Origin: a virus
Taxonomy: Duplodnaviria > Heunggongvirae > Uroviricota > Caudoviricetes
Virus record (IMG/VR): IMGVR_UViG_2778261463_000004
Coordinates: 1-12,325 of that record
Length of the DNA: 12,325 nucleotides
Reading direction: 5' to 3' (one strand)
Below are positions 1-3,000 of the stretch, in pieces (position 1 is the stretch's first letter; the number at the start of each line of letters is the position of its first letter). The position numbers are program-made.

Positions 1-3000
1 TCACCGGCATTAAGCCGCTTATAAAACGTCGACGGGAAACACTTACCGGGGCCAATGTTATAGGGACAGAATGACGCTATACCCGCTTTTTGTGGTTCGG
101 TCAGTGGTACTTTAATATTGCGCTCCACCCATGCCAGCGCCTTATCACGCTCAATGGCATTAACCTGAGCGCATTTTTCCTTCGACAGTTTCATGCCCGG
201 AATAACAGGTTTACCGTCCACCATTGTGGCACCACGACAGATGGTCCATATACCGGAACCATCGCGGTATGCCGTAGTGTGGTTACCCTCTTTTTCGTCC
301 AGAAACTGGTCAAGTATTTGAGGAGCAGACGCGCCTGCAGCAATCAGCGCCAGAACAGCAGCTGACAGGCCGTATTTGATTTTTGCGCTCATGGATATTT
401 ATCAGGATGCTACCAATGAAAGATACTGGAAAGCCAACTGCAAAAAGCTAACAACCTGTAATCGAGTTATCAGAACTGTTAATTTTTATGGTATACCGCG
501 CCTCTGAACAGGCGCGCGTTTCTGGCAACAGCTCGTCCCCTTCACATAACCCGGCAGCAACATCCAGGAAGACCTGTCTGATGCTCCTTCTGGCTGCTGC
601 CTCATAAAACTCCAGCGCGGCACCTTCAACACGGTCCAGCGAGATGTCCAGGTCAAAAATTTCACCGTCAAAGCGTTTTTTGTCCCGTAACGCTAAAGTT
701 ACCGTAACTTTATTCTCAAAATTGCGGATCCCTTTCACAATCACTTCATAGTTTTGAGTCATTGAATTACTCTCCCCGTGCAGCCTTACGCTTGTCTTCT
801 CTGATTTTGAAGTACAGATTTGTCAGATAAGTCAGGAAGCCCAGTGCCAGACTCCCCAGCACACCAATAGCAGCCCACTGTGAAGGACTGACCTGATCAA
901 GCCACTGCAAAAACCAGTACCCGGCACTACCTGCTGAGGTGCCATAGGCGACACCCGTTGTTAACTTATCCATGGATTTCATAACCCCACCTCGCAGATG
1001 CGGGTGCTGTGTAATGGAAATAAAAAGGCCACCTGACGTGGCCACCAGATTATTTCCCCACCAGCTCGTTTATCTCTTTCACTGTCTGATTAAACCGCTC
1101 TGACTCAAGCTCAACACCTAAGGCCCGACGCCCCAGCGCCATTGCTGCTTTTATTGTGGAACCGGATCCCATAAAAAAATCAGCAACCAGATCACCTGGT
1201 CGACTACTGGCATTGATTATTTGTCTGAGCATATCCGCCGGTTTCTCACACGGATGTTTCCCCGGGTAGAACTGAACGGGTTTATGCATCCAGACATCGG
1301 TATAAGGCACGGAGACTGATACGGAGAAATAGCGCCGGAGAGATTTAAACTCATCCAGCAATTCAGAATATTTGCGATTCAGTGAATCATAAGATGCCAC
1401 CAGCTGGTGGTGTGGTTGTTCCAGTTGTTGTTCCTGAAACTTCTCTGCCGCTATACGGGAAAACAGTGCCTGTAACTTCCGATAGTCAGCCTCATTCGGC
1501 AACTGCCACTGACTGGCACCAAACCAGTGGGAAACCATATTTTTCTTACCTGTGGCTTCGGCAATTTGTTTTGCCGTTATACCCAGTTCGGCACGAGCAT
1601 CCCTGAAATACGAAATCAGCGGTGCCATTATGTGCTGTTTGAGTTCCCTTTCTTTTGCTGCATAGCCGTCACTTTTGCCGCGATATGGCCCCTGGTAATG
1701 TTCAGCAAACAGAACGCGCTCTGTGGCAGGAAAATATGCGCGCAGACTTTCTTTATTACACCCATTCCAACGTCCGGACGGCTTCGCCCAGATGATATGG
1801 TTAAGCACGTTGAAACGTTCACGCATCATGATCTCAATATCAGATGCCAGGCGATGCCCACAGAACAGGTAAAGGCTTCCGGCAGGTTTTAACACCCGCC
1901 AGAACTGGGCCAGACAGTGGTCCAGCCACTTAAGGTAATCTTCGTCCCCTTTCCACTGATTGTCCCAGCCGTTGGGTTTCACCTTGAAGTACGGCGGATC
2001 GGTAACAATCAGGTCAATGGAATCATCAGGCAGGGACTGAATAAAATGCAGGCAATCAGCGTTGATTAAATCAACACTGTTTATTTTTACAGTATTTTTC
2101 ATGGATCAGTAAGCGTAACTCTGGTAGGCTCACTCTGCTTTTGCGCTAAAGCAGTGGGCTGTGGTTCGCTTGTGACCAGTAAGCATGAGCGAATGGCTGG
2201 CAGGTGCTACCAACACCCACCAGCCGCCCATTTTCACAGCAGGAAACCGCCATTACTGGCAGCGTCTGAATTTATTCCCGTACCCGCCGTTATCCTTCGC
2301 CAGACCCGCCAGAACTAACTGAGTCAGTATTAACTGGCACCGGGCTTCGCTTACTCCGGTAGTTCTCGTCATCATGCGTGGCGTTACCCACTTGTCAGCA
2401 GGTAAGAAATGAAGGACTGCGGCGGCGGTTTCTGTCATATCTTGCTGTTTTAGCATGTCTTTTTCCCTTCTGGTTAACATGACATACCAATAACTCTTGT
2501 CTAAAAAGCCAGCAAGATAAAAAGTCAGTATTCACGACCACCAGCGTGTTTACTGTACTGCACCAGGTTTACAGGCACAAAAAACCCGCTTGTGGGCGGG
2601 TTTTGTTTGCTTTTGCCATCACGTACAAAATCGGCAAAATATCAGATTTGCATGAAATATATGCCTTTCAATCTACTTTTGCAACACTTTGCTTTGAAAA
2701 TGCCGCCTTTTGTTTTGAACGTGTTCTCATTATAAACAATAAAGCCTCACTATCCAGTCGTTGAAAAATGTGTTTCATTGCAACCCAGTGACGAGTAAAT
2801 GTTTTGGACCAGTTTTTAGTTGTCACTCCCGCCAGTAATGCCAGATCCTGGTATTCATAACCTTCCCCACCAAAAAGTTCTGCTTTTACTGCCTGCGCCG
2901 CCAGCCAGATTAATTTTTTCAGGCGTTCCTGCGTTTTCCCTGCAATTTTTCTGGTACCGGATTGAGTATTAAATTCATTCCACGCCCACTGTGTGATCGC

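Follow-up and report, generated by a model that had tools for sequence, protein, structure and literature searches.

An orphan adenine methyltransferase of the M.EcoGII family, bracketed by predicted terminators and preceded by a conserved leader element, in the late operon of a lambdoid prophage

The stretch of 12,325 nucleotides (nt) analysed here, hereafter the window (IMG/VR virus record IMGVR_UViG_2778261463_000004, positions 1 to 12,325), is a piece of a lambdoid prophage that extends from replication to lysis and contains cI, replication genes, RusA, Q, holin and endolysin. Its late operon contains a gene for an orphan adenine DNA methyltransferase, which is followed by a predicted intrinsic terminator and then by the lysis genes. 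Our analysis assigns this methyltransferase (methylase) to the M.EcoGII family and shows that it belongs to a portable cassette occupying the same place in other phages. We propose, with a probability of about 0.7, that the enzyme is expressed late and in a Q-dependent manner and hypermethylates the progeny DNA, with the terminators keeping both the methylase and the lysis genes off in the lysogen. A preliminary description of this DNA had recognized the methylase and the terminator and had suggested that the arrangement would allow methylation in the lysogen without lysis; its reading at the level of annotation stands, and its regulatory idea finds no support.

A prophage-borne orphan methyltransferase

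Every gene discussed here lies on the minus strand, within the late operon of the prophage in the case of the methylase locus, which is organized as follows:

2668-3363, minus strand: late antiterminator Q gene (Pfam Phage_antiter_Q PF06323, E-value 7e-91)
2656-2684, minus strand: pR'-like late promoter, TTGCAA-17-TATATT (consensus scan, 9/12 match)
2575-2604, minus strand: tR'-like predicted intrinsic terminator, hairpin and T-run
2253-2456, minus strand: small open reading frame (ORF) with a predicted winged helix, 67 amino acids (aa) from the ATG at 2456, open up to 2480 (equivalent of SfV orf47)
2246-2263, minus strand: hairpin around the stop codon of the small ORF, a weak terminator-like site
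2103-2246, listed on the minus strand: conserved structured leader element of about 145 nt, whose strand is not settled
1050-2102, minus strand: beta-class N6-adenine DNA methyltransferase of the M.EcoGII family, 350 aa (PF01555)
1018-1043, minus strand: predicted intrinsic terminator past the methylase (stem 1027-1043, T-tract 1018-1026)
767-982, minus strand: phage-21-type holin with a dual start M-K-S-M, first lysis gene (Pfam Phage_holin_2_1 PF04971, E-value 5e-35)

The methylase matches the Pfam profile N6_N4_Mtase (PF01555) with 145.9 bits (cut-off 26.7) over profile positions 1-220 of 221. As had been noticed before, its motif order is that of the beta class, with motif IV (DPPY, aa 35-38) ahead of motif I (FMGSG, inside FFMGSGST, aa 310-314). 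The presence of DPPY instead of SPPY or SPPF indicates adenine as the target. No endonuclease gene is adjacent, the flanking ORFs being those of Q, the small winged-helix protein, the holin, YdfR and the endolysin; because no restriction endonuclease gene adjoins it, the methylase does not form part of a type II restriction-modification system. With Q, the small ORF and the holin as neighbours, and a position downstream of the Q gene, the pR'-like promoter and the tR'-like terminator, the terms 'orphan' and 'late operon' of the preliminary description are correct.

Over its full length, including the central recognition region, the protein is identical to M.EcoGII at 281 of 349 residues (81%), and 310 of 348 residues (89%) are shared, again over the full length, with the reconstructed ancestor Anc291. 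By its sequence, it is a prophage-borne orphan member of the M.EcoGII family. No equivalog for it exists in NCBIfam, where the best matches (YhdJ-like and CcrM adenine methylases) lie far below the cut-offs. M.EcoGII methylates adenine in any context, and the role proposed for its family is to overcome restriction (PMC5778455). Both M.EcoGI and M.EcoGII of E. coli O104:H4 C227-11 are not expressed in their native lysogen, and their constitutive expression slows growth and is deleterious (PMC5778455; PMC12707154). Reconstructed ancestors across the M.EcoGII clade all retain activity on DNA and RNA, and the two that were tested for site preference, on RNA (Anc291 among them), displayed no discernible motif. 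The window methylase, too, probably methylates adenine in any context, and no single recognition motif is expected. A motif search would probably be empty because M.EcoGII and its tested relatives methylate adenine irrespective of context.

Predicted terminators on both sides of the methylase

The segment that runs from Q through the pR'-like promoter to the tR'-like hairpin is identical in phage vB_EcoS-689R5, despite the different cargo that follows in that phage. We infer that the pR'-like site serves as the late promoter. In lysogens, pR' is constitutive and its transcription is terminated at tR' (PMC7547250). The tR'-like hairpin of the window (AAAACCCGCC-CACAAG-GCGGGTTTT, followed by TTGTG; free energy -12.4 kcal/mol) carries a terminator annotation in SfV and Ayreon, and it is at this hairpin, at 2602-2603, that similarity to other phages stops, which defines the upstream edge of the portable cassette. 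The short transcript predicted from pR' to tR', of about 70-75 nt, would be of the same class of by-product RNA as StxS; matches to the Rfam families isrK and isrJ over 2579-2652 are weak (E-values 0.04-0.1, below the gathering score).

A second hairpin holds the stop codon of the small ORF in its loop (GCUGCC-AGUAAU-GGCGGU, then UUCCUGCUGUG; -9.9 kcal/mol), and other loci have a canonical terminator at this position, for example GCCTTCAGTCCTGAAGGCTTTTTTATTT. Between tR' and the methylase ATG, a scan for sigma-70 promoters returned no site of at least 9/12 except a single 9/12 match inside the small ORF, and by consensus scan the non-coding stretches 2103-2252 and 2481-2575 contain no promoter-like site. 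The most economical reading is that the methylase is produced only from Q-antiterminated transcripts, in keeping with reports that M.EcoGI and M.EcoGII are silent in lysogens.

Between the methylase stop and the holin, the preliminary description had placed a terminator, and a hairpin with a T-tract is indeed present at 1018-1043. On the minus strand it reads GGCCAC-gtcag-GTGGCC (1043-1027), then TTTTTATTT (1026-1018), with a stem of 6 base pairs (bp), five of them G-C, and a loop of 5 nt. It begins 6 nt past the TAA stop (1052-1050) and ends 35 nt ahead of the holin ATG (982), within an intergenic gap of 67 nt. The hairpin alone has a free energy of -11.0 kcal/mol, and the local fold with the flanking A- and T-tracts reaches -19.5 kcal/mol (z = -2.84, 2 of 200 shuffles being as good), the A-tract upstream pairing with the T-tract as in strong terminators. 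Since the plus strand has no T-run, the terminator should be active on the minus strand only.

A consensus scan over 3.5 kb detected seven terminator matches, against 3.6 +/- 1.7 expected in shuffles, so that a single match is not significant by itself. We therefore rely on comparison with 80 related loci from other genera, about 46 of them canonical. In about 20 of these 46 or so, a script found a hairpin with a T-tract past the methylase, mostly 5-9 nt from the stop, and at least nine of the stems at this similar position are unrelated in sequence. The records of SfV, Ayreon and N15 list the equivalent hairpin as a terminator, and it travels together with the methylase cassette in other phages. 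This co-travel, these annotations and the nine or more unrelated versions indicate that the predicted terminator is real and not a product of chance. The remaining loci have either a hairpin without a T-tract past the stop or a different long hairpin further downstream; as this other half lacks a canonical version, the terminator is frequent and not obligatory.

Seven of the loci without a canonical terminator (L014, L015, L028, L030, L032, L034 and L045) have in common a long conserved hairpin, TTCAGGCNCCGGGAA ... GCCCG..GCCTGA, about 40-100 nt past the methylase stop and before the holin, and related hairpins are found in L010 and L027. In the window, a terminator-like hairpin with a T-run is also found within the methylase coding region (1184-1202, minus strand), at the FxGxG motif (codons ADFFMGS). 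It is probably a by-product of conserved coding sequence, since the Salmonella homologue has a similar match.

Distribution and exchange of the cassette

Positions 1-2602 of the window are 97.7% identical at the DNA level to phage mEp460, and 988-2602 is shared with SfV, cdtI, Ayreon and many Shiga toxin (Stx) phages. The breaks in similarity, at 2602 and about 988, coincide with the tR' and post-methylase terminators. Of 5426 complete E. coli genomes, 2089 contain related DNA, in up to 8 copies each. All three Pfam Q families are represented among the Q proteins that precede the cassette, and at least five Pfam families among the holins that follow it (in Salmonella, Plesiomonas, Proteus, Kluyvera, Klebsiella and others). 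In a Stx2a phage it is inserted between Q and the tRNA-stx2 genes. Phage vB_EcoS-689R5 (locus L004, 2526-3340) shares the Q, promoter and tR' sequence of the window and encodes a close relative of its phage-21-type holin. In place of the methylase cassette it has three tRNA genes with their own promoter-like site, and a different hairpin with a T-tract lies about 60 nt ahead of the holin. The various contexts of the cassette and this replacement suggest that the Q-to-lysis interval is a site of cargo exchange, at which the cargo tends to bring along a terminator before the holin.

The association of methylase and terminator is already known. The N15 record is annotated with -35/-10 signals, a stem-loop terminator, the methylase, a second stem-loop terminator and the holin, in this order, and a methylase flanked by terminators is annotated in SfV and Ayreon; the preliminary description had overlooked these annotations. 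Nothing of use came from searches for SfV orf48 and N15 gene 52. In this respect, the methylase and terminator of the window are one more copy of a cassette that over a third of the complete E. coli genomes carry, as do sequenced phages, Stx phages included.

A model for Q-dependent expression and its alternatives

The portable cassette consists of a tR'-type predicted terminator, the small winged-helix ORF, the structured leader, the methylase and a second predicted terminator. It fills the slot between Q/pR' and the lysis genes, so that no gene of substantial size precedes the methylase in the late operon. In the lysogen, pR' would fire constitutively and its transcripts would end at tR'. 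Any leaky transcription would meet the second, weak hairpin and then the third terminator past the methylase; since successive terminators would multiply the block on leakage, both the harmful methylase and the holin would stay off. Upon induction, Q would render RNA polymerase resistant to terminators, and a single transcript would cross all three sites. The methylase would then be produced and the replicating phage DNA would become heavily adenine-methylated prior to packaging. Such hypermethylated DNA could benefit from broad protection against adenine-sensitive restriction in the next host, in agreement with the protection of progeny DNA suggested in the preliminary description and with the role that the literature proposes for the family (PMC5778455). 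The terminator at 1018-1043 would represent the 3' boundary of the cassette and an extra barrier to polymerase that has not been antiterminated, and would not serve as an insulator for lysogen-specific expression of the methylase. One can expect that methylomes of uninduced lysogens will reveal no motif and no signal, and that virion DNA should be heavily methylated.

Several points weigh against this scenario. Consensus promoter scans are crude and could miss a weak or non-sigma-70 promoter, and in a Salmonella relative the small ORF is preceded by a promoter-like site with a 10/12 match. Our reference for M.EcoGII (Supplementary Table S1 of PMC11551740) was machine-read from a PDF, with a few errors in the sequence, and the 19% divergence from M.EcoGII could in principle alter specificity. 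The post-methylase terminator, whose activity is predicted, has a stem of just 6 bp, and directly past the methylase a canonical terminator is missing from about half of the homologous loci.

Alternatively, the methylase could be a moron with its own Q-independent promoter, produced in the lysogen to exert epigenetic control or to protect the host chromosome, with the terminator shielding the holin. A gene accompanied by its own terminator in the Q-to-lysis slot is indeed the classic moron layout, the tRNA cassette of vB_EcoS-689R5 combines a promoter-like sequence with a terminator-like hairpin before the holin, and the 10/12 site of the Salmonella relative could be such a promoter. However, no trace of methylation by M.EcoGI or M.EcoGII is seen in their native lysogen, and both are harmful if constitutive (PMC5778455; PMC12707154), neither 2103-2252 nor 2481-2575 contains a promoter-like site, terminator-like hairpins lie upstream of the methylase, and a start codon without a Shine-Dalgarno sequence, as found in all 44 loci, is ill-suited to steady expression. 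We consider a moron unlikely. The earlier idea of methylation in the lysogen without lysis finds no support, and goes against the silence reported for the family in lysogens, the lack of a convincing sigma-70 promoter and the predicted upstream terminators.

One could also imagine a sequence-specific enzyme, with a phage-internal role in the control of packaging or replication or as a shield against one restriction system. Such specificity would be in line with most PF01555 enzymes, which are site-specific, and with the best NCBIfam matches, YhdJ-like enzymes and CcrM being specific adenine methylases, albeit far below the cut-offs. It is made very improbable by the identity of 81-89% over the full length, target-recognition region included, to enzymes without site preference, and by the ancestors spanning the clade, all active on DNA and RNA and, for the two tested (on RNA), without a motif. 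As for the hairpin at 1027-1043, it could mainly be a 3'-end stabilizer or processing site, or a recombination scar, with little effect on transcription of the lysis genes. The short stem, the T-tract-less or different long hairpins in roughly half of the related loci and the nearby break in inter-phage similarity, at 988, could all be read in this way, whereas the recurrence of a hairpin with a T-tract near the stop codon in at least nine unrelated sequences, and the pairing of the upstream A-tract with the T-tract as in strong terminators, argue for termination; a mere stabilizer or scar is improbable. Q-dependent late expression behind successive terminators remains our preferred reading.

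A conserved structured element in front of the methylase

The 150-nt spacer between the small ORF and the methylase is conserved more strongly than the neighbouring coding sequences: across genera, the leader element exhibits 73-91% nt identity, compared with 40-60% aa identity for the small ORF and 60-83% for the methylase. Its fold has a minimum free energy of -59.9 kcal/mol (z = -2.64). RNAalifold, run on a plain MAFFT alignment of leaders, produced a poor and partly different consensus; for this reason the helices were written by hand and tested by pair counts and with a covariance model. The proposed helices are:

2226-2230/2155-2159, minus strand: P0, closing a junction with P1 and P2
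2214-2225/2195-2206, minus strand: P1
2185-2193/2165-2173, minus strand: P2
2148-2154/2135-2141, minus strand: P3
2128-2134/2108-2114, minus strand: P4

In the plain MAFFT alignment of 46 sequences, 80.9% of the cells pair, compared with 28-47% when partners are slid, and 17 pairs change on both sides, compared with 9.1 in shuffles (0 of 500 reach this number) and 4-10 with slid partners. The corresponding figures for the model-fitted alignment, which is biased towards the proposed structure, are 30 of 40 pairs, 13.4 in shuffles and 7-12 with slid partners. Of 85 related sequences searched, the covariance model matches 50, with scores of 110-176 bits, and each of these matches runs up to the methylase ATG; there are weak matches in Gilliamella and Photorhabdus, and one of 46 bits in N15, in which P1 and P3 are compensated. 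Across Enterobacterales, and in N15, the element accompanies genes of the M.EcoGII family. A 22-nt core motif of the leader is present in at least 120 viral contigs, and the methylase starts 130-133 nt downstream of it in 111 of the 115 contigs with enough room, the four exceptions being truncated remnants. We found no match for the element in Rfam 15 and no paper in a text search of the literature for its sequence.

No canonical Shine-Dalgarno sequence precedes the methylase start, either in the window or in any of 44 related loci, and the anti-Shine-Dalgarno energy of this start (mean -2.44 kcal/mol) is no different from the background of -2.49, whereas the other annotated starts of the window that were checked have -5 to -12 kcal/mol. 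The start has a nearly invariant GATC(C/T)ATG ahead of an A-rich start region predicted to be unpaired (GAUCC-AUG in the window; 2100-2122). Three ideas about this region were rejected. Pairing of the UGAUC before the AUG with positions 1530-1534 of 16S rRNA amounts to merely -4.9 kcal/mol, a value matched by 34% of background positions. For a hairpin occluding the start codon, of the Mu mom type, RNAalifold detected no conserved pairing from -60 to +60 around the AUG. An upstream ORF in the leader (AUG GGC GGC ...) encounters stops in three frames in 40-50 of 50 leaders, and the loop indels are not multiples of three.

In our opinion, the chances are even that the leader is an undescribed conserved cis-regulatory RNA of M.EcoGII-family genes, with a three-way junction (P0/P1/P2) and two hairpins that gate translation or stability. 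Among its conceivable roles, that of a cis-acting element of the methylase mRNA, affecting translation or stability, is the most likely. Its possible partners are the small winged-helix protein and the methylase itself, an RNA-binding enzyme. In a strand test based on wobble pairs, P1 and P4 favour the sense strand, and P2 and P3 the antisense strand; as wobble pairs do not settle the strand, an antisense RNA from the leader DNA is also conceivable. A scan for an antisense promoter near 2070-2100 found none, the best candidate -10 not being conserved at synonymous sites.

A locus of Erwinia sp. P7711 (L005, 5001-5361) contains the small ORF and the leader (123 bits), after which no methylase gene is called. 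Its neighbours are Hcp and toxin genes and a fragment of a lambda-type Q, and it is apparently what remains of a decayed prophage.

The small winged-helix ORF

The small ORF belongs to phrog_331, the family of SfV orf47. Its AlphaFold2 model (pLDDT 87) has a helix-helix-helix-strand-strand order, and Foldseek matches it to winged-helix domains with TM-scores up to 0.83, the E-values being 3e-3 or higher. As modelled, it is a minimal winged-helix protein. It contains an invariant RCQLILTQL..AGL helix and adjoins the methylase in Salmonella, Plesiomonas, Xenorhabdus and others. The association is found in most loci and not in all, the small ORF not being detected in about 12 loci that bear the leader. 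This protein may be a partner in leader-based control. A Zalpha-like reading was not adopted, the Foldseek E-values being weak; on inspection, the characteristic contact residues of Zalpha appear to be absent from the small protein.

Lysis genes and other features of the window

Two further genes border on the elements described above:

3354-3713, minus strand: RusA gene
448-762, minus strand: YdfR/DUF1327 gene, between holin and endolysin

The YdfR/DUF1327 gene, of unknown function, is likewise interposed between holin and endolysin in mEp460. Read by eye, the N-terminus of the endolysin resembles a signal-arrest-release sequence. The dual start of the phage-21-type holin corresponds to Met1-Lys-Ser-Met4 (971-982, minus strand), and just ahead of it a hairpin is predicted (985-1006, minus strand) in which CACCCGC pairs with GCGAGGUG, covering the Shine-Dalgarno sequence of the holin. 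In lambda S, a comparable structure sets the ratio of holin to antiholin. A sequence search of the PDB with the Q protein gave no match.

Comparison with known systems

The closest relatives of the window methylase are M.EcoGII and M.EcoGI, with which it shares the beta-class motif order, the prophage-borne and orphan status and, in the case of M.EcoGII, nearly the same length (350 aa against 349 aa) and 81% identity over the whole protein. A M.EcoGII-like copy in a Stx2a phage is preceded by the same small ORF and the same leader element as in the window. The window protein and M.EcoGII differ at 19% of residues, and the activity, the specificity and the silencing of the window allele are extrapolated from the family. 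The same cassette occupies the same place in N15 (gene 52), SfV (orf48), Ayreon (SJJBTUD_0053) and mEp460 (gp53), and in N15 and SfV terminators are annotated on either side of the methylase, with the holin next. N15 has no small ORF, and the identity of its methylase to M.EcoGII is only about 55% (the figure refers to M.EcoGII and not to the window protein). The holins of SfV and Ayreon are of other types, and in mEp460 and Ayreon a further gene separates Q from the cassette. In N15, similarity to M.EcoGII begins 234 nt upstream of the annotated start of gene 52 (L210, 2501-2735), so that this coding sequence appears to be N-terminally truncated.

The com-mom operon of phage Mu offers a parallel in logic only: it is also made late, has a small ORF and a structured leader ahead of the modification gene, and counters restriction. 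The sequences are unrelated, and Com is a zinc-finger RNA-binding protein, whereas the small ORF of the window encodes a putative winged helix. In Mu, the start of mom is occluded by a stem-loop; in contrast, the AUG region of the window methylase is not predicted to be paired, and no conserved pairing extends over the AUG.

The leader element is the sole part of this locus that adds novelty, and it merits follow-up. M.EcoGII is in wide use as a tool for labelling chromatin and RNA. If our view of the leader is correct, it would provide a testable mechanism for the control of a toxic phage enzyme, and would explain the silence of M.EcoGII in lysogens.

The overall arrangement is reminiscent of the pR'-tR' region of lambda and Stx phages, from which StxS originates (Sy et al., 2020; PMC7547250). 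The window differs in that its cargo is itself bracketed by further terminators, and its predicted transcript of about 70-75 nt is at best weakly similar to any Rfam family. In both cases, a constitutive promoter is immediately followed by a terminator, read-through to the cargo would depend on Q, and the lysis genes come next, the cargo between Q and S being stx or tRNAs in the known phages and, in the window, the methylase.

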